Of a stretch of 10,817 bases of DNA, positions 1,761-10,817 are shown in pieces. The notes beneath the pieces were generated by a model. It ran no database searches, was not told the origin of the DNA, and was given only the letters and a program-made list of their open reading frames with translations. This stretch comes from Candidatus Nanoarchaeia archaeon (GTDB lineage: Archaea; Nanobdellota; Nanobdellia; SCGC-AAA011-G17; VGLX01). The stretch is taken from NCBI GenBank assembly GCA_038884815.1, contig JAWABC010000009.1, positions 8,925 through 19,741 on the forward strand. The letters run 5' to 3'. A program made the position numbers and the translations under genes. Every line of letters begins with the position of its first letter. Position 1 is the stretch's first letter.

Positions 1761-2591
1761 CTAAAATACAGTTTCTTCAGGAAACACAACGATACCCTTA
1801 TCCGTAATCTTCATTGGAAAAATCCTAGTGGAATGCTCAACACCCTTCAACTTCAAAACCTCAATGGCACGCTCCCTCATGTCACCCTTCCTTATGTTGT
1901 AAAGAAGTATTATACCATCAACATCAAACTCAACTGTTTTTGGGTGATGCCTGTCAACGTTCTGCTCCTCCTCAGCAACAAGGATAGCAGTACAACCCCA
2001 CCTCTTGATAAGCTTAAACAAATCAAGAAAGGCTTCCATCCTGGTCAATTCATCCTTGAAAAGAAATGCAAAAGCAGTTAGGGAATCAATAACTATGCGC
2101 TTGGCCTTTATCTTCTCAACAGCGACATCAACCTCACCACCACCTTCAGACAGCAGCTTCTTAACCTGCTCAGGGGTGTACTCTATAACGACAAGCTTGT
2201 GCTCATCCTGATACTTTTTCAAATCCCAACCAAACTTAGACATATGCTTTAACACATCCTCCTCTCTTTCCTCAAATGTTATGTAAACACCTGGCTCGTT
2301 AAACTTCTCTATCCCATTAACAAGGAACTGAATTGAGAAAATGGTCTTGCCAGAACCAGGACCGCCAGCAATTATGTTAACAGAGTTTTCTTCAAACCCA
2401 CCACCCATCACCTTGTCCAAACCCTCGATTCCTGTCTTAACAGGCCTCTCCTCAGTAACAACTGTAACCGGTCTTACAACAGGAAACTCCGCTCTAGTAA
2501 TCTGAACCTTACCATCCTTAAGAGAGATGTTATGACTCACAGCCTCACTGGGAGAATGAGCTTCCTCCCTCTCACCATTTTTTGAGTTCAT
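1761..2591 (-). CDS. Single-domain KaiC/RecA-superfamily ATPase (COG0467/RAD55-like; positional analogue of FlaH/ArlH)
   Basis: The sequence TGIEGLDKVMGGGFEENSVNIIAGGPGSGKTIFSIQFLVNG contains the Walker A motif GPGSGKT. RIVIDSLTAF is Walker B-like. The C-terminal part DGIILLYNIRKGDMRERAIEVLKLKGVEHSTRIFPMKITDKGIVV is typical of KaiC/RadA-like domains. The track starts the ORF at TTG 2594, but ATG at 2591 (MNSKNG...) is the more likely start. Confidence 0.85.
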   Translation of the reverse strand: MNSKNGEREEAHSPSEAVSHNISLKDGKVQITRAEFPVVRPVTVVTEERPVKTGIEGLDKVMGGGFEENSVNIIAGGPGSGKTIFSIQFLVNGIEKFNEPGVYITFEEREEDVLKHMSKFGWDLKKYQDEHKLVVIEYTPEQVKKLLSEGGGEVDVAVEKIKAKRIVIDSLTAFAFLFKDELTRMEAFLDLFKLIKRWGCTAILVAEEEQNVDRHHPKTVEFDVDGIILLYNIRKGDMRERAIEVLKLKGVEHSTRIFPMKITDKGIVVFPEETVF

Positions 2592-2632
2592 CAAAAAAAG
2601 GAATGAAAAACAGGTTTATAAATTTTTGTTTA
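2592..2632 (-). promoter_or_regulatory. Short spacer with a TATA-box-like TTTATAAA (2615-2622) about 27 nt upstream of ATG 2591, plus T5 and T7 runs. It may be an internal, near-leaderless promoter and/or an oligo-T pause or terminator.
   Basis: The minus strand reads tgaTAAACAAAAATTTATAAAcctgtttttcattcctttttttgATG. The TATA-to-ATG distance fits the usual archaeal TATA-to-TSS spacing if the mRNA is leaderless. No Shine-Dalgarno is present. Confidence 0.35.
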
Positions 2633-3619
2633 TCAAAAAGTGAACAGCCCGCCAAGAACGTTAGAAACTACAAAGCGGACAAGGAAGAACAAGCCGATGC
2701 TTATGCACAAAACAAAAGGTATAAGCTTAAAGCCATACTTCTCCTCTCCATGTAGGATCAAACCCATCATCAACCCACCAAGGATAGAAGTTATGGAAAT
2801 GGAAGTTATGATATAAGTTATGACAAAGCCGGGAGTTACAGAAACTTTCGTTATTGTAATAGGAAGATTCATGGCTAAACTTTCTTTAGGAATCTCAACC
2901 TCAGAAAGTATACTGGTCATAACCTCAACAAGAAAAGAACTCAAACCATAAAGAAGAGGAGCGCCAATGCATATTGCAGCAAAAATAAAAATTACGTACA
3001 TCCTAATGTTAGCGCGAACCTTCTGATTGATGAATTCCTGGTTACGAAGATTACGAGCCGTCTGGTCAAGCAAAGAAGCCAACTCGCCACCAGCCCTCAA
3101 ACCAGAAACTATAAGCATCATAGTCTTCTTAAACTTGTCAGAGTTAATCCTGCTAGCCATACCCAAAAGACAATCATCGATGTTTTTACCAACAGTAATT
3201 TCCTTACCCACCCTCATTATCTCCTCAGTAAGCGGACCGAACTCAGGCCTTGCTGAAAGCAGAAGAGCACGCTCAGGAGTGAAGCCAGCCCTCATGTTAC
3301 TTGACATGAGTTGCAAGGCATCAGGCAAAACCTTTTCAATAAACTTAGCCTTGGCATCAACGCTAAGCAAGAGCCAAACGTAAACAGTCACCTCAAAAGC
3401 AACAAACGTTATAATGAAAGTAAGCCAGAGATTCCACTGAAACATGTAGCCAAGACCAAAGGCAAGCACCCAAGCAAAGCCAAAACCAAAAGAAAGTATA
3501 AAACCAGTAAACTTATATGGGTCGATCCTTATGTGGGCAAAGTCAAGAAGCTTCTTGTAAGACTCAAAAACCCTTCTTGGGAAAAGTTTGGATATAAGCC
3601 TGTAAAACATCTTACTCAC
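2633..3619 (-). CDS. Type IV filament platform protein with one T2SS-F domain (TadC/EpdK-like; equivalent to the C-terminal half of FlaJ/PilC)
   Basis: The cytoplasmic T2SS-F-like segment is LPDALQLMSSNMRAGFTPERALLLSA...FGPLTEEIMRVGKEITVGKNIDDCLLGMASRINSDKFKKTMMLIVSGLRAGGELASLLDQTARNLRNQ. It sits between N-terminal and C-terminal TM helices. The track start at 3619 is a GTG that overlaps the upstream gene by 8 nt. An ATG at 3610 (MFYRLISK...), 1 nt after the upstream TAA, is an equally plausible start. Confidence 0.85.
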   Translation of the reverse strand: MSKMFYRLISKLFPRRVFESYKKLLDFAHIRIDPYKFTGFILSFGFGFAWVLAFGLGYMFQWNLWLTFIITFVAFEVTVYVWLLLSVDAKAKFIEKVLPDALQLMSSNMRAGFTPERALLLSARPEFGPLTEEIMRVGKEITVGKNIDDCLLGMASRINSDKFKKTMMLIVSGLRAGGELASLLDQTARNLRNQEFINQKVRANIRMYVIFIFAAICIGAPLLYGLSSFLVEVMTSILSEVEIPKESLAMNLPITITKVSVTPGFVITYIITSISITSILGGLMMGLILHGEEKYGFKLIPFVLCISIGLFFLVRFVVSNVLGGLFTF

Positions 3620-4520
3620 TCAACAGGTGAGGCCTCCTAGATTTTATCATACCCAAAAATATTATCTGCAGGAAAATTATGAAAACAAGCAAACCCCACA
3701 AAGCCATCTTTGTAGCGTTCTCAGAAAGGGCAATGAAAGAAGAAATTATTATGATGAATGTTATGCTCAGAGAAGGGGCTATAACAGCTACAAGCATGTA
3801 AAACATAGCAAGAGGGTTAAGCTGGCTGCCATAATTCTGAATCTGAACAAGCTGCTCCTCAGACAAGTCATTAATTATGTCATTTATTACAGTGGCTAAG
3901 TCACTACCTGCCTTCATGCTGTTGACTATCTGCCAAACAGCACGCCTGAACAAAGGGGAAGGGTTCTCAGAAGCTAATTCTTCCAAAGCCTCAACTTGAG
4001 GCCTTCCTGTATTAATCTGCTTGACAGCCTTGCTAAACTCTTTAGACAAATCACCATAGTCACCCTTAGAAATGTTAACAAGTATGTTAAAAAGAGGAAC
4101 CCCAGAATTAAGCTGAATCAGTATGTTCTGCAAGGCAGGAAGAAGGTTCTTCTCCAAACCACGAATCTTACGGTTGGAATAAATCCTTGGGTACATGATC
4201 TGCTGAGCAAAAACAAACAAAGAGAAAACAGCAGATACGATGAATCCCACACCAAGAGGAGCCTCAAAACCTATCAAAGAGATTACAGTGGGAGTGGAAA
4301 AAACAAAAGTGAGTATGAAACCTAAGATTACAAAGAAAAAAAGAGTTGAAGAAATGCACAAAGCAATGTACTCCTTAGCATCAACGTCCATGCCTGACTG
4401 CTTAAGGTTCAAGTCCAACAAAGGAAAAACAGGTTTTACAGCCTGGCCTAAACCGATGAATGCCTTCGCGAACCTCCTAAGAACCTTTGGAGGTAAAAAG
4501 TTGTATGGAATTCTTATCAT
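3612..4520 (-). CDS. Type IV filament platform protein with one T2SS-F domain (TadB/EpdJ-like; equivalent to the N-terminal half of FlaJ/PilC)
   Basis: The T2SS-F-like segment is LLPALQNILIQLNSGVPLFNILVNISKGDYGDLSKEFSKAVKQINTGRPQVEALEELASENPSPLFRRAVWQIVNSMKAGSDLATVINDIINDL, flanked by TM helices. ATG 4520 lies 6 nt after the ATPase TGA stop (4527-4529). Confidence 0.85.
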   Translation of the reverse strand: MIRIPYNFLPPKVLRRFAKAFIGLGQAVKPVFPLLDLNLKQSGMDVDAKEYIALCISSTLFFFVILGFILTFVFSTPTVISLIGFEAPLGVGFIVSAVFSLFVFAQQIMYPRIYSNRKIRGLEKNLLPALQNILIQLNSGVPLFNILVNISKGDYGDLSKEFSKAVKQINTGRPQVEALEELASENPSPLFRRAVWQIVNSMKAGSDLATVINDIINDLSEEQLVQIQNYGSQLNPLAMFYMLVAVIAPSLSITFIIIISSFIALSENATKMALWGLLVFIIFLQIIFLGMIKSRRPHLLSE

Positions 4521-4526
4521 TATGAA

Positions 4527-6029
4527 TCATTTAAACAGCTCATCAACATTACCCTTCTCAACAATCTTTAGGAAAGACTCTGGATCAACGTAATAAGCGT
4601 TCATTATCTTACCAACTTGGTCTATGCTCCTAAAGTTATTCTTAACCATCCAATCAAGGATGAACTTCTTGGTGGCAAGGTCCTTATCAATCTCCTTCTG
4701 ACTCATACCAGTATGCCTACTCAAGTCTTCGAACAACTTCTGAGCCTTGCCATGCACCACGATCTTGTCACTGTCAGGCCTCCACCTATAAAGTATGTTA
4801 GGCTTAACAGACGTCCTGCCCTCTTCTTCCTCAGAAGTTATGAACTCACCTATCTGGAAGGTACGCCTAATACCCTTACGCCTATCCCTAAACATGACAA
4901 TGTCCAAGTTAACCGCACTCAAAAGGTTGGGAGGAACTTTAAGAGGAGGATTCGTAAGCCTCCTAATCGTATCAGCAATAGTATCAGCATGAACAGTAGC
5001 GTAAACAGAGTGACCTGTGTGCATGGCCTCGAAAAGAACCTCTGCCTGGTCCTTCTTACGCATCTCACCAAGGATGATACGGTCAGGCCTCATCCTAAGA
5101 GAGTTGACAAGCAAGTCAAACATAGAAACCTTACCCTTCCCCTCTGGGTTGGGCTGCCTAGTTATGAGAGGACACCAGTACAAGTGTTCAGCAAGCTGCA
5201 ACTCACGAGTATCCTCAATACTCAAAATCCTCTGATTCGGGGGGATAAAGGCCATGAGGACATTAAGCATAGAGGTCTTACCAGAAGCAGTGCCCCCACT
5301 CACCAGGATGTTCATCTCATACTGAACAGCCAACCAGACGAGAGCAAAAACACTGGAATCACAAGTGTTGTTTTTTATGAAGTCAGTAACGGTCCAAGGA
5401 TCACGCGCAAATTTCCTTATAGTTATGGTGTTACCTTTGGTAGCAATAGGGTAAAGAACAGCGTTAGCACGGTCACCGGTAACAAGGTGAGCGTCAAGCA
5501 AAGGATTAAGTGTTGTAACTTGACGACCAACACGACGCGCAATTATGCTAGCATAGTTATGAATCTGATCCTCTGTCCTCACAAAAATGTTGGTGTCAAG
5601 CCAGCCGTACTTCTTATGGAAAACCCTGATAGGTTCTTTGGAAGAGGTTAGAACAATTTCTTCAAGATTTGAATCGTTCATCAAAAACTCCACATCTCCA
5701 AGACCAAGCATTTCATGAAGTAAAGTGTTAACAAGATAAGTCTTAACATCAGGCTCAAGGTTCGGAAGGAGCTTATCAAGCAAGGCATCAGCCCTAACAC
5801 TAAACCTCTGTTTAAGAGCATCTATTATTTGCGGGTTCAATATTTCAGACGTGCTTATTGTAGTTTCAACAACAAGCTGATTCCTTATCTCATCAAGAAG
5901 GGCAGCTGTAGCAACAGAAAGTTCTGGAATCACCAATTCGTAACGCAAATTCCTACCCACAGTCCTCATTATCTTAACTGTAATCTCAATCATGTCAGAC
6001 TGAACTTTGTATGACTCTACTTCTTGCAT
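4527..6029 (-). CDS. Type II/IV secretion-family hexameric ATPase (FlaI/ArlI, TadA, VirB11, archaeal PilB clade)
   Basis: This is a 500-aa ORF. Walker A is VSGGTASGKTSMLN, the Asp box is RILSIEDTRELQL, Walker B is RPDRIILGEMR and the His box is HTGHSVYATVHAD. ATG 6029 overlaps the upstream gene's stop by 13 nt. Confidence 0.92.
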   Translation of the reverse strand: MQEVESYKVQSDMIEITVKIMRTVGRNLRYELVIPELSVATAALLDEIRNQLVVETTISTSEILNPQIIDALKQRFSVRADALLDKLLPNLEPDVKTYLVNTLLHEMLGLGDVEFLMNDSNLEEIVLTSSKEPIRVFHKKYGWLDTNIFVRTEDQIHNYASIIARRVGRQVTTLNPLLDAHLVTGDRANAVLYPIATKGNTITIRKFARDPWTVTDFIKNNTCDSSVFALVWLAVQYEMNILVSGGTASGKTSMLNVLMAFIPPNQRILSIEDTRELQLAEHLYWCPLITRQPNPEGKGKVSMFDLLVNSLRMRPDRIILGEMRKKDQAEVLFEAMHTGHSVYATVHADTIADTIRRLTNPPLKVPPNLLSAVNLDIVMFRDRRKGIRRTFQIGEFITSEEEEGRTSVKPNILYRWRPDSDKIVVHGKAQKLFEDLSRHTGMSQKEIDKDLATKKFILDWMVKNNFRSIDQVGKIMNAYYVDPESFLKIVEKGNVDELFK

Positions 6030-7138
6030 AACTCAGCCTCCCCCAACGGAGGATAATTAATCCTGATAAGGCCGTGCTCCTCAAGGATCTTGCCCCATTG
6101 CTCAGCAAGCTCCTTTGAGATGCCAAAACCAGCGGCAATCTCACTTACCGTTACCTTACCACGCTTCTCCACAAGCTCATAAACCTTATCGATATTGGTT
6201 TTGTATTTACTTGCCCTTGCAATAACGCTCTCCTTTATTGCTTTTAAAGTTTCAATCTTGCTTTCCCTCTCCTGCTGCCTTCTCTTTCTAATATTCCTAT
6301 ATATCTTCAAAAAAACGAAACCAGTAAAAAGCCCTGCCAAGACAGCAAGAGTTATCCACGCGTACCAATTAAGGAATGGTATTTTGGCTTTCCTGTTGAT
6401 AATAAGCAGAGCGACAAGTATAAAAACAGAAATACAGTAAGAAATTATTGTTACGTGCTTGTAAATTTTTGGATAATGATGAGGTTGAATAATAGGCTTC
6501 TTCTCTTTCTTTCCTTCTTTTTTCTCCTTCTCCTGCACCTTCTCCTCGGTTTTCTTAGCAGCCTTCTTGCTGAACAAACCAACAAACCTTATTTTTATAT
6601 CTTTGACGTTAAAAACAATCCTTTCCTTTACCTCTGTAAAAAAGCCTCTACCTCTGGGCTTTTCCTTCTTAGGCTCCTTAACCTCTTTCTTAACAACCTT
6701 CTCCTTTGTGAGTTTAGGTTTTTCCTTAACATGAAGACCTCTTGCCTTAGCAAAAATGAACAAAACAATAGCACCAAAAGTTAATCCAGCAAGGATAAAA
6801 ACCCAAAGAGTAAGATTTAATGGCGAGGATATGAGGTCGTAATACTGCTTTGTAATCTGGTAAGTCCTAGCATACAAGAAATAAATCACTATAGCTATAG
6901 TTATGAAGCCGAGAAGTATCCTGTAAACCATCTTCTCCTTGTTCTGCATGATAAGACTTGTGAAAGTGTCAGCATGAGTAAGCTTAACCCCCTCGGCAAT
7001 GAAACCTATGAGCATGAGAATAAAACCAAGAACAACAGTTATGACAAACCAGCGGTCATAGAAAAAAGAGGCTAAAATAGCAGCCAAACCCAGCCAGAAA
7101 AAAACTCCAAAAATCTTGTAAATCCTCTGATCCAACAT
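6017..7138 (-). CDS. Polytopic membrane protein (about 6 TM) with a ~95-aa Lys/Glu-rich loop and a C-terminal cytoplasmic winged-helix (wHTH)-like domain
   Basis: ATG is at 7138. There are four TM helices in aa 8-130 and a K/E-rich segment in aa 131-226 (KEKPKLTKEKVVKKEVKEPKKEKPRGRG...KKTEEKVQEKEKKEGKKEKK). Two more TM helices lie in aa 229-279, followed by the basic stretch RNIRKRRQQERESK. The wHTH-like tail is DKVYELVEKRGKVTVSEIAAGFGISKELAEQWGKILEEHGLIRINYP. The CDS call is solid; the domain call is by eye only. Confidence 0.8.
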   Translation of the reverse strand: MLDQRIYKIFGVFFWLGLAAILASFFYDRWFVITVVLGFILMLIGFIAEGVKLTHADTFTSLIMQNKEKMVYRILLGFITIAIVIYFLYARTYQITKQYYDLISSPLNLTLWVFILAGLTFGAIVLFIFAKARGLHVKEKPKLTKEKVVKKEVKEPKKEKPRGRGFFTEVKERIVFNVKDIKIRFVGLFSKKAAKKTEEKVQEKEKKEGKKEKKPIIQPHHYPKIYKHVTIISYCISVFILVALLIINRKAKIPFLNWYAWITLAVLAGLFTGFVFLKIYRNIRKRRQQERESKIETLKAIKESVIARASKYKTNIDKVYELVEKRGKVTVSEIAAGFGISKELAEQWGKILEEHGLIRINYPPLGEAELCKK

Positions 7139-7223
7139 CTAACTCAAAATCCCCCCTTTTTCTTACTTCTAATATGAACCATATTTCATTTATTAAATGT
7201 TTGTTTTACTTATTTAATAGTAA
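7139..7223 (-). promoter_or_regulatory. 85-bp spacer between the pilin block and the machinery block, with A/T-rich TATA-like boxes and a purine-rich RBS-like G6 run
   Basis: The minus strand reads tagTTACTATTAAATAAGtaaaacaaacaTTTAATAAatgaaatatggttcatattagaagtaagaaaaaGGGGGGATtttgagttagATG. TTTAATAA lies at 7190-7197 and the G-run at 7151-7156, 12 nt from ATG 7138. This is the only sizeable non-coding gap inside the locus. Confidence 0.35.
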
Positions 7224-8069
7224 CTATGCAATCCTCGCTGTGCTAAACTTAGTAAGATTAGATTCAGGAAAAGTTATGTTGTAAAGGTTTTGAGGGTAAG
7301 TGACTATGATCCTTTCATCTTGAGGAATGTTCATTGTTATGTTGGTAGAGAAAATAACATCATGGTTATCTTTGGTTGATAAGTTCATCATAGCAGGATT
7401 ATTTATGTCTATGTCAATCCTCCAAGTTGAAGGGTAAGACAAAAGAACGTAAGCACTGCTGTAAGCTGCAGGGTTAACGTTCACAGTAGAAGACAAAGAG
7501 CCTGAGGAATGCTCCACTTTTATTGTGAAAGGCATTGAACCGGAAGAAACGTAGTTCCAGGTTATCGTAGCGCTCTGAGCAGTAGAAGTTATTGTAATCA
7601 CATAACTCTTAACATCGTCAACGCTTTGCGGACTTACCATTATCTCCTCATCGCCAAAAGCGTCATGGGTATAAACAATACCTTTAGGCTCGACGTTCAG
7701 AGTCAACTTATTTTTAACGCTGCTGTAAACAGAGCTGTCAAAAACAACTTTGGGAGAAACGTTATAGTTATCCTCTACATAGGACTTGAACTGATCCATA
7801 ACGTTACCGAAATTGCTGCTTCTGGGAAGGGTTTCTGTGAAAACAACAGACTCATTATAAACGTCAACAGCAAGGCCTGACCTGTAATCAAAAATCCTTC
7901 TCAAACCCATACCTATTGAAGAGTCAAGCTCGTAAAGCCTGTCAAAAAGAGCAAGCTCACCAAAGCGATCGTTCAAAGACTTCGTGTTGTGAAACATCAA
8001 AATACCCAAAGAAAAAACAACGCTGGCTAGGAAAAACATACCAAGAGTAATCATAACACCTTTTTTCAT
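7224..8069 (-). CDS. Pilin-like or pilus-associated secreted protein with a class III-type signal (MKKG|VMITLGMFFLASVVFSLGILMF) and a ~250-aa Ser/Thr/Asn-rich beta-rich ectodomain
   Basis: ATG 8069 forms an ATGA overlap with the upstream TGA (8066-8069). The track's start at 8084 is a TTG five codons further upstream. A [KR]G pair precedes a 22-residue hydrophobic helix. Several N-x-S/T sequons are present (NES, NVS, NLS, NIT x2, NLT). I recognised no known domain. Confidence 0.75.
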   Translation of the reverse strand: MKKGVMITLGMFFLASVVFSLGILMFHNTKSLNDRFGELALFDRLYELDSSIGMGLRRIFDYRSGLAVDVYNESVVFTETLPRSSNFGNVMDQFKSYVEDNYNVSPKVVFDSSVYSSVKNKLTLNVEPKGIVYTHDAFGDEEIMVSPQSVDDVKSYVITITSTAQSATITWNYVSSGSMPFTIKVEHSSGSLSSTVNVNPAAYSSAYVLLSYPSTWRIDIDINNPAMMNLSTKDNHDVIFSTNITMNIPQDERIIVTYPQNLYNITFPESNLTKFSTARIA

Positions 8070-8521
8070 CTCAACCACATCCAATAATGTGCAGTAGCGA
8101 AATACTCAACTGTTGCCTCACCAGATGTCTCATTAGGAATCACAAAGTTACGACTGCCACCAACAATAAGCTGCTCGCCAGGAGGCTCTGTAGTGCTCTC
8201 CACAGTAAGTATGCCAGGAAGGAATGTCCCATTAATCTGAACCCTCATATGATAAGTAGCAGGCAAAAGAGTTTTTACTTGTGCAGAAACATCACTCTGA
8301 TTCAAACCAACCAAATCACCTTCATGATCCATAACAGCCAACAAGTCATAACCAGTACGGGTCATCTGCAGCTTAGACAAAGGCTCATCATTAGCACGGC
8401 CAACGTAAAAAGAAGCAACAACCAAGAAAATGAAGACTACAAAAACTGCAACGGCAGCATCCAAAGATAGGATGAAGCCCTTACTTCCAAACCGTGAACT
8501 CGAACAAAGCCCTCTGCCCAT
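8066..8521 (-). CDS. Pilin-like protein with a class III-type signal (MGRGLCSSSRFGSKG|FILSLDAAVAVFVVFIFLVVASF)
   Basis: ATG 8521 is the only canonical start in this frame before the hydrophobic helix. It overlaps the upstream gene by 41 nt. A KG pair precedes a ~23-aa hydrophobic helix, and the ~110-aa ectodomain carries the sequons NQS, NGT and NET. Confidence 0.75.
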   Translation of the reverse strand: MGRGLCSSSRFGSKGFILSLDAAVAVFVVFIFLVVASFYVGRANDEPLSKLQMTRTGYDLLAVMDHEGDLVGLNQSDVSAQVKTLLPATYHMRVQINGTFLPGILTVESTTEPPGEQLIVGGSRNFVIPNETSGEATVEYFATAHYWMWLR

Positions 8522-8963
8522 TGAAAATCACATACCTGTAAAGGTTAACCCTCTTCGTATCTTGAGATGTGTAGTTAAGACCCAACTCTTTTAATGTCAC
8601 ACCGCCAAAAGTCTTAACCTTCAAAGAATAATCATAAGGATGGATGTCAAACAAATCTTTTGTTGTTTCATAACTTAAATTAGCCATGGCATCTATCTTC
8701 TCAGCAGACAAAACCCTGTCATCAGAAGCCAAGCCAAGAACGGTAACGTTTTGAGGACTAACTTCCCACCTTGAAGGAACGCCAGGAGTCTTAACCAGCA
8801 TATCTGTAATGTGAAAAGCATGAAGCTGCATCTCCTCGTCTTCCAAGTCATCAGCCAACCTCGAGTTGTAAACGTTCCAAACAACGAGAAGTATGACAGT
8901 TAGAAGTATGAAAACAAGGAATGATATTATCAGGTCAACGCTTTCTATTTGCCCTTTAGACGT
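8481..8963 (-). CDS. Pilin-like protein whose class III-type signal (..TSKG|QIESVDLIISFLVFILLTVILLVVW) lies upstream of the first canonical start codon. The true start is unresolved.
   Basis: The track ORF 8481..8858 begins at a TTG. The same frame stays open upstream as far as a TGA at 8970-8972. That upstream stretch encodes CTTSKGQIESVDLIISFLVFILLTVILLVVWNVYNSR, a KGQ motif plus a hydrophobic helix like those of the neighbouring genes. It contains no in-frame ATG, GTG or TTG. The left (stop) coordinate is firm and the right coordinate is a guess (the ACG codon at 8961-8963). Confidence 0.6.
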   Translation of the reverse strand, partial: TSKGQIESVDLIISFLVFILLTVILLVVWNVYNSRLADDLEDEEMQLHAFHITDMLVKTPGVPSRWEVSPQNVTVLGLASDDRVLSAEKIDAMANLSYETTKDLFDIHPYDYSLKVKTFGGVTLKELGLNYTSQDTKRVNLYRYVIFNGQRALFEFTVWK

Positions 8964-10742: not shown

Positions 10743-10817
10743 GTGAAAAGAGGACAAGCAGCCATGGAGTTTTTGATGACTTATGGTTGGGCTATTCTAG
10801 TAGTTTTAGTTGCAATC
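10743..10817 (+). CDS. Type IV pilin-like protein, 5' fragment only (25 codons), with a class III signal peptide V(M)KRG|QAAMEFLMTYGWAILVVLVAI. It is a candidate major pilin.
   Basis: The GTG start has a perfect AGGAGG 8 nt upstream. A KRGQ cleavage-type motif is followed by E at +5 and a hydrophobic helix. The ORF runs off the right edge, so it is absent from the ORF track. Confidence 0.8.
   Translation, partial: MKRGQAAMEFLMTYGWAILVVLVAI

Follow-up and report, generated by a model that had tools for sequence, protein, structure and literature searches.

The window analyzed here is a 10,817-nucleotide (nt) stretch (G000:C9:8925-19741) of the genome of a Candidatus Nanoarchaeia archaeon, which is 0.93 Mb in size and 90% complete. 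On its minus strand lies a gene for a 373-amino-acid (aa) membrane protein, P0001, that ends in a winged-helix (WH) domain, and the end of this gene overlaps the start of the gene for a FlaI/TadA-type secretion ATPase. We examined the WH protein, its relatives and its gene neighborhood. The WH is the conserved unit of the protein, its gene travels with one clade of ATPase genes, and the face with which a winged helix would be expected to contact DNA is acidic and strongly conserved. On balance, we favor a role for the WH in docking the ATPase. The protein is laid out as follows.

6017..7138, minus strand: WH membrane protein gene (P0001, 373 aa), an open frame with an ATG start, from translation.
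6743..7138, minus strand: N-terminal four-helix membrane bundle, residues 1-132 (Kyte-Doolittle scan; AlphaFold2 predicted local distance difference test score, pLDDT, ~75-92).
6467..6742, minus strand: disordered Lys/Glu-rich loop, predicted to be cytoplasmic, residues 133-224, 92 aa (charge count; pLDDT 43-61).
6299..6466, minus strand: transmembrane (TM) helices 5 and 6, residues 225-280 (Kyte-Doolittle scan; AlphaFold2 helices 225-251 and 258 onward).
6206..6298, minus strand: basic juxtamembrane stretch and helical stalk, residues 281-311 (AlphaFold2).
6020..6205, minus strand: winged-helix domain, residues 312-373 (AlphaFold2 pLDDT 92-98; Foldseek; profile search).

P0012, an 84%-identical homologue, has an N-terminus identical to that of the 373-aa protein. 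A public protein collection holds the protein only as a 326-aa form (P0013) that ends at residue 326 (…VYELVEKR). This form is without most of the WH, and automated annotation of the gene would therefore miss the domain. The neighbors of the gene, in locus order, are as follows.

10626 down to 7224, minus strand: class-III-signal pilin-like protein genes, first in locus order.
7224..8084, minus strand: class-III-signal pilin-like protein P0007 (translation), the usual upstream neighbor of the WH gene.
7139..7223, minus strand: AT-rich spacer of 85 nt upstream of the WH gene (sequence).
6017..6029, minus strand: 13-nt overlap between the TAG stop of the WH gene and the ATG of the ATPase gene (sequence).
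4527..6029, minus strand: FlaI/TadA-type secretion ATPase P0002, 500 aa (PF00437, T2SSE, E=7e-35).
3612..4520, minus strand: platform protein, first half, T2SSF, P0003 (PF00482, E=3e-16; its position after the ATPase is conserved).
2633..3619, minus strand: platform protein, second half, T2SSF, P0004 (PF00482, E=6e-18; position conserved).
1761..2594, minus strand: single-domain KaiC/ArlH-like ATPase P0005 (PF06745, E=3e-63).
Last in locus order, minus strand: Cache-domain membrane protein (dCache_1 match under the Pfam cut-off).

The locus holds one T2SSE ATPase gene, a pair of single-domain T2SSF genes and pilin-like genes with class III signals, and it fits a type IV filament (T4F) locus with a split platform. 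We call it 'system 1'-like on the basis of gene content and order. P0002 matched the NCBIfam FlaI model with an E value of 4.6e-84 at a score under the model's cut-off, P0005 matched the ArlH/FlaH models only below cut-off, and the Class_IIIsignal match in the locus reached 22.7 bits against a cut-off of 23.7. On the plus strand, a divergent class-III-signal pilin (…KRGQAA MEFLMTYGWAILVVLVAI…) starts at 10743-10817 and runs past the window end; it may be the major pilin of the locus.

The stop codon of the WH gene lies 13 nt inside the ATPase frame, as an earlier note on this DNA had stated. The minus strand here reads ...GAG TTA TGC AAG AAG TAG, with the ATPase ATG contained within it (ttATGcaagaagTAG). 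The note had also taken the 85-nt spacer at 7139-7223 for the only real spacer in the locus, and this was wrong: other gaps lie at 8859-8955 (97 nt, possibly coding), 2595-2632 (~38 nt) and 1712-1760 (49 nt). The spacer carries a TATA-like element (TTTAATAA) ~51 nt ahead of the WH gene ATG and a G-rich Shine-Dalgarno-like element (GGGGGGAT) 13 nt ahead of it, and judging from these elements it may be a promoter.

Residues 312 to 373 modeled as a winged helix, both within the full-length protein (AlphaFold2 from an 80-sequence alignment, mean pLDDT 76) and as a separate tail (150-sequence alignment, pLDDT >90). The order of elements is H1-b1-H2-H3-b2-wing-b3, a three-helix core followed by a C-terminal beta hairpin (H1 315-326, b1 328-330, H2 331-338, H3 342-354, b2 358-361 and b3 369-372). 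Using Foldseek against the PDB, we obtained a probability of 1.0 to dozens of WH structures. The top match was the WH of ESCRT-II Vps22 (3cuq_A; probability 1.0, 33% identity over 63 columns), and further matches included eS25, MarR-family proteins, ArsR structures, AF2008 and SSV1 F-112. For profile searches of the PDB, a domain-only alignment (A2) replaced the full-length one (A1), which had brought up nothing but TM and low-complexity noise, such as Piezo and G protein-coupled receptors. A2 gave IclR at an E value of 1.3e-5 and, more weakly, eS25, ST1889 and LrpA; the regulator families matched were IclR, Lrp, MarR, MntR and TrmB, and the CdvB WH (2xvc) appeared weakly (E=0.2). The prediction of a winged-helix tail was thus upheld by both the model and the fold search. 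No Pfam or NCBIfam model reached its cut-off with either the full-length protein or the isolated 78-aa tail; the best Pfam scores for the full-length protein were 16.2 bits for HTH_DeoR (cut-off 21) and 16.3 bits for HTH_28 (cut-off 25). The domain is a WH of an uncatalogued family.

The family consensus is YETDiDxLYxLvxxxGxixlSEvAkxFxIsKxxAEEWgKILEEHxLixihYPxxGEpEL, from which the motif Y-E-T-D..LY..V...G.i..SE.A..F.IsK..AEEW.KILEEH.L...YP..GE.EL is conserved. T314 and D317 are invariant across family members, and F338, E346, W348, I351, L352, Y362, P363 and G366 are each conserved in at least 90% of them. H3 (AEEW.KILEEH) has a mean net charge of -2.0, with an acidic residue at E346 in 98% of members, at position 347 in 90%, at E353 in 85% and at E354 in 65%; W348 and H355 of this helix are conserved too. 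The wing (YP..GE.EL) has a mean net charge of -0.8. E367 is acidic in 88% of members, and Lys or Arg occurs in the wing only at this position, in 6%. Over the whole WH stretch the median net charge is -1. By this sequence criterion, the WH does not have the net positive DNA-contact face that is expected of MarR-, IclR- and ArsR-type regulators. The strong conservation of exposed residues across the whole class suggests a conserved macromolecular partner, and the acidic face argues against DNA as that partner.

The N-terminal side of the protein was described in the earlier note as four TM helices, a Lys/Glu-rich loop, two more TM helices and a basic stretch, which together would leave the WH-like tail in the cytoplasm. 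A Kyte-Doolittle scan and AlphaFold2 confirmed this arrangement. The scan gave six hydrophobic segments (9-27, 30-48, 70-88, 111-129, 229-247 and 261-279), and the full-length model gave TM helices at 2-24, 31-49, 67-89, 107-132, 225-251 and 258-~280. The last of these is prolonged by the stalk, so that the model has one unbroken helix from 258 to 307. The loop contains 34 Lys and Arg against 14 Asp and Glu (residues 130-228), has a pLDDT of <50 across 161-222 and forms a single short helix at 179-193. For the membrane bundle there was no fold relative in the PDB, as the fold search with the full-length model matched the WH alone.

The cytoplasmic placement of the tail was borne out by the charge distribution and the AlphaFold2 topology, and by a feature of the whole family. 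With the tail inside, ~60 Lys and Arg residues are cytoplasmic and ~6 are outside, in agreement with the positive-inside rule. Of 113 members that combine a C-terminal WH with a TM helix, 94% were net positive over the 20 aa past the last TM helix. This basic stretch puts the WH on the cytoplasmic side, which is also the side of the ATPase.

To define the family, we searched 1.84 billion cluster representatives with phmmer (E<=1e-3). The 911 representatives that matched share just ~65 to 75 residues, which correspond to the WH. By a simple hydropathy rule, 150 of the matches had no hydrophobic segment (30 proteins), one or two (50), three or four (47), five or six (22) or ten (1); in the same set, carrier lengths ranged from 75 to 612 aa and the WH was not C-terminal in seven proteins. 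The whole 6-TM architecture occurred only in family-level relatives, namely P0012 and P0015-P0018 (49 to 36% identity). Soluble coiled-coil or TPR-like proteins of 390 to 1043 aa carry the WH at their N-terminus in other orders of this class, and a 77-aa stand-alone WH protein was also found. These sequence comparisons indicate that the WH is the conserved unit and that the 6-TM anchor with its Lys/Glu-rich loop is a lineage-specific carrier. The architecture in the earlier note is real for the protein in the window but specific to its lineage, and the essence of the component is the WH.

Several carriers illustrate this range. A WH lies ahead of a Yip1 membrane domain in L086:3296-4837 (-), is fused to TPR repeats in L077:2095-4347 (-) and is fused to a 330-aa coiled coil in L073:3113-4282 (-), each with the ATPase directly downstream. 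In L080:4692-8057 (-) it forms the C-terminus of a 1122-aa protein with a DUF676/alpha-beta-hydrolase region, with no ATPase nearby. There is also a paralogous branch of ~200 aa with the same C-terminal WH, seen in two unrelated metagenome-assembled genomes (MAGs; L068:2457-3059 and L072:5584-6180), whose genes adjoin those for AMP phosphorylase and ribose-1,5-bisphosphate isomerase (IF-2B family) and not an ATPase gene.

Of 301 genomes that sample the phylum evenly, 174 contained WH matches, including a few paralogues not beside an ATPase. Named relatives found through the motif were all Woesearchaeota, Nanoarchaeota or unclassified archaeon MAGs, which marks the source of the window as a DPANN archaeon; these names come from a narrow pattern search (8-sequence alignment A3) whose 37 loci under-sample the family. 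In databases the WH proteins are called 'hypothetical protein' or carry an automatic 'DtxR family transcriptional regulator' label.

Linkage to the ATPase gene, on which the earlier note had made its reading depend, held in the relatives. In all 20 relatives with a strong match (E<=1e-17), a FlaI-like ATPase gene shares the strand of the WH gene and begins where the latter ends or just past that point, and two relatives with weaker matches show the same adjacency (related genomes, in these counts and those below, are not independent samples). The ATPase adjoins the WH gene in 42 of 45 metagenome and named Woesearchaeota/Nanoarchaeota loci and in 13 of 15 class-level loci, in which the WH is N-terminal or sits on other carriers. 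Loci without an adjacent ATPase were L053 (contig end), L084 (which runs off the contig), L080 (the hydrolase fusion), and L068 and L072 (the paralogous branch). The typical order is one or more pilin-like genes, the WH gene, the ATPase gene, platform half 1, platform half 2 and often a KaiC-like gene, the last found downstream in ~19 of 45 loci. By tblastn, 27 of the 45 loci had a match to P0007 ahead of the WH gene and on its strand, though not in every case as the direct neighbor.

The same adjacency was found with very different carriers. Six diverse metagenome members each had the WH gene directly upstream of a T2SSE gene. Three of their proteins have TM helices (one with 2, one with 10, and one in which the WH is N-terminal and the TM helices are C-terminal), and three are soluble, with lengths of 77 aa (the stand-alone WH), 450 aa and 585 aa; the 585-aa protein also has a weak second WH-like match at its N-terminus. 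Where the contigs of these members continued, two T2SSF genes usually followed the T2SSE gene, with L032 and L033 as exceptions. For 73 WH-ATPase pairs, with start codons picked by a heuristic, the two genes overlapped in 46; the commonest spacing was -13 nt (17 of 73), and the remainder were mostly no more than 40 nt apart.

Co-occurrence follows the ATPase clade. Among 40 relatives, the WH was present where the orthologous ATPase was present (47 to 74% identity), with the single exception of G005, in which the ATPase is cut at a contig end. The genomes among these 40 that lack the WH carry only an ATPase paralogue of 31 to 37% identity. The genome of the window itself contains a second type IV filament pair (L088; G000:C6:11500-16500), which consists of a 542-aa T2SSE ATPase and a T2SSF platform protein of 456 aa that is fused, not split. 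The ATPase of this pair is that same paralogue and has 34% identity to P0002. This pair has no WH gene and has a metallo-beta-lactamase-fold gene upstream.

The ATPase orthologues of several Woesearchaeota are interrupted in frame by inteins: L036:6159-10280 (+), L049, L052, L055 and G033:C27:56500-59511, the last with an ATPase frame of 1008 aa. L036 has two, one directly after GGTASGK (Walker A) and one within the Asp box, between SIED and TREL; each ends in HN followed by T.

Taken together, these results lead us to favor, with modest confidence, a model in which a cytoplasmic WH that does not bind DNA docks or scaffolds the ATPase, in the manner of ArlX or GspL and without homology to either. 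In this model, the WH gene would encode an accessory subunit of the split-platform machine with which Woesearchaeota/Nanoarchaeia (DPANN) build type IV filaments. The part of the subunit that acts would be the C-terminal WH, held in the cytoplasm on the stalk that prolongs TM6, and the conserved acidic face formed by H3 and the wing would contact a conserved protein partner. The likeliest partner would be the hexamer of the FlaI-like ATPase, whose gene overlaps the WH gene on its downstream side, so that the WH protein may tether or scaffold the motor at the membrane beside the platform proteins. The 6-TM anchor and disordered Lys/Glu-rich loop would be one lineage-specific carrier out of many. 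That the partner is a protein fits with the coupling to the ATPase gene, co-occurrence with a single ATPase clade, the cytoplasmic WH and the exchangeable scaffolds. The fold, the topology bias, the family, its synteny and co-occurrence and the conserved acidic face are shown by the analysis, whereas we infer which partner the WH has, that it does not bind DNA and that it acts as a scaffold. A stronger version, to which we give slightly less credence than doubt, is that the acidic WH is a near-obligatory core adaptor of the Woesearchaeota/Nanoarchaeia T4F motor, a portable ATPase-docking module mounted on interchangeable scaffolds.

Several points weigh against docking. In sequence, the WH resembles DNA-binding helix-turn-helix (HTH) families (IclR, MarR, DeoR and TrmB). 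Genes for regulators often adjoin their target operons, and gene overlaps are common in the compact genomes of DPANN archaea. The N-terminal 100 residues of the ATPase, which by analogy with GspE-GspL would be the natural docking site, are its least conserved part (36 to 43% identity against 71% for the core), and the idea that this region is a docking domain under special conservation was dropped. The listed open frames of the 301 genomes included no natural fusion of WH and ATPase, and the long frames inspected were TPR, coiled-coil and hydrolase fusions. The small paralogous WH branch adjoins AMP phosphorylase genes and not an ATPase, and the soluble 77-aa form implies that membrane tethering is dispensable.

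The earlier note had proposed two roles, docking of the ATPase and regulation of the divergent pilin promoter. The evidence favors the first without proving it and makes the second the less favored. As a regulator, the protein would be a one-component transcription factor, tethered to the membrane or to a scaffold, whose WH binds an operator in the pilin or ATPase promoter and couples expression to a membrane or envelope signal. We regard this as rather unlikely. It draws on the profile matches to DNA-binding regulators, led by IclR and including Lrp, MarR, MntR and TrmB, on the many MarR and ArsR structures in the Foldseek results, and on the position of the gene between pilin and motor genes, and membrane-bound regulators have been predicted earlier in type IV pilus (T4P) loci (PMC4858521). 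One entry is also named as a DtxR family regulator, a name that was assigned automatically. Basic residues are nearly absent from H3 and the wing, both of which carry a net negative charge, and the overall charge of the domain is about -1. The upstream spacer does hold, in addition to its TATA-like element, a perfect AT-rich palindrome (TATTAAAT-N13-ATTTAATA) at 7191-7219 that overlaps this element, but in a search for a shared operator it was not repeated in the pilin promoter region, and it may be chance in AT-rich DNA. Furthermore, the WH gene is coupled to that of the ATPase, not to those of the pilins, and its occurrence follows a single ATPase clade. Fusions to coiled-coil or TPR carriers of 400 to 1000 aa and to Yip1 would be unusual for a simple operator-binding factor. 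We favor docking over regulation because H3 and the wing are acidic yet conserved, because the WH co-occurs with an ATPase clade and because of the coiled-coil, TPR and Yip1 fusions.

The conserved acidic face and the linkage to the locus would apply equally if the WH bound another protein or if it switched ATPase activity instead of serving as a static anchor. Candidates for such another partner are the KaiC/ArlH-like ATPase, the two platform halves, through their cytoplasmic domains, and a client such as a prepilin. KaiC-like genes recur downstream, ArlH binds ArlI in the archaellum, the N-terminal domain of the ATPase is poorly conserved and the soluble stand-alone WH forms fit an activity regulator better than an anchor. 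However, the KaiC-like gene is missing from many loci that retain the WH-ATPase pair, two loci (L032 and L033) retain the pair with no platform gene directly after the ATPase, and adjacency and overlap are specific to the ATPase gene. We therefore consider another partner or a switch improbable. It is very improbable that the association reflects operon habit only, with a generic membrane protein of a small genome whose WH is functionless or acts in an unrelated process. The paralogues beside AMP phosphorylase and ribose-1,5-bisphosphate isomerase genes and the hydrolase fusion without a nearby ATPase would fit such a view, but the WH is strongly conserved class-wide, surface residues included (T314 and D317 invariant; E346, W348, Y362, P363 and G366 at 90% or more), and it co-occurs tightly with one ATPase clade.

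DPANN archaea are ultrasmall, mostly uncultivated and thought to be host dependent, and type IV filaments are prime candidates for contact with their hosts. What recurs in a large part of the phylum is a compact, conserved module in which pilin genes are joined by those for the WH protein, the ATPase, both halves of the platform and, in many cases, a KaiC-like ATPase. What is new is a family of probable accessory subunits of a known machine, which has a known fold and neither a family model nor functional annotation. If the WH docks the ATPase, it would provide a marker for finding and classifying such machines, a concrete protein-protein interface open to test and a further example of a winged helix that binds protein and not DNA. 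If it is a core adaptor, it would represent a new class of T4F motor scaffold in which a fold for DNA binding has been adapted to bind protein; the pili of this lineage are thought to serve in attachment to hosts. If it is a regulator instead, DPANN archaea would have a new and widespread family of transcription factors that are tethered.

Among known systems, the closest functional parallels are ArlX/FlaX and ArlCDE, which are accessory proteins encoded in an operon with a FlaI-type ATPase and a KaiC-like ATPase. ArlX is membrane anchored and ArlCDE is soluble; their cytoplasmic parts are coiled coil or disordered, and their supposed role is to keep the ATPase at the platform. In style, the WH carriers of sister orders that are coiled coils resemble ArlX. 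However, ArlX has one N-terminal TM helix, a ring-forming coiled coil and no winged helix, and we detected no sequence or fold similarity between ArlX/FlaX and the WH protein. The locus in the window also differs from an archaellum locus in being pilus type with a split platform, and Pfam and NCBIfam scans of its open reading frames gave no match to archaellum accessory models and no ArlF or ArlG. GspL and PilM-PilN, the adaptors of the bacterial type II secretion system (T2SS) and type IVa pilus, are bitopic and use an actin-like (ASKHA) domain to bind the N-terminal domain of the ATPase. By analogy, the WH protein would likewise be a membrane-anchored protein, encoded in the operon of its machine, whose cytoplasmic domain docks a secretion ATPase. 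It differs in having six TM helices and a WH as the cytoplasmic domain and shows no homology to them; a Pfam scan of the window proteins gave no T2SS-L or PilM match.

ArnR and ArnR1 of Sulfolobus, and arCOG00381, combine an HTH-type domain with TM helices in or near archaeal type IV filament loci. ArnR is said (Lassak et al., 2013) to have an N-terminal HTH and C-terminal TM helices and to bind the archaellin promoter. In the protein described here this order is reversed, with the WH at the C-terminus, the DNA-contact face is acidic and the gene is coupled to that of the ATPase. No ArnR-type family-level similarity appeared in Pfam and NCBIfam scans, in which no direct comparison with the ArnR sequence was made. 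Membrane-bound regulators of arCOG00381 have been predicted in haloarchaeal T4P loci (PMC4858521). Precedents for a WH as a protein-docking module at a membrane-associated machine are ESCRT-II Vps22, Vps25 and Vps36 and the C-terminal WH of CdvB, which are also the nearest or recurring structural matches of our domain. They act in a membrane-scission pathway and are not orthologues, and the likeness is at the level of the generic WH fold.

The earlier note knew of no characterized component with this architecture, and our results agree, as there is no Pfam or NCBIfam family for it and a literature search found no description of the WH component. The accessory parts of Epd-type systems in the papers searched are a FleN/MinD ATPase, EppA, DUF2341 adhesins and two unnamed membrane proteins, with no WH protein among them. 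A 2016 census of archaeal T4P, which did not cover Woesearchaeota, lists membrane-bound and other regulators and many accessory proteins of no known role and no such WH protein. With its ATPase, two separate platform genes and several class-III-signal proteins, the locus most resembles archaeal T4F 'system 1' or clade 1 (Epd type), which a 2026 census reports in Nanobdellati (DPANN) (PMC13705601). Most DPANN systems stayed unassigned in that census, which described their loci as scattered; it found their T4F genes rarely in ordered loci ('unordered') and mostly system 1-like, with two platform genes (PMC13705601). In contrast to those loci, the locus in the window and its relatives are compact and ordered.

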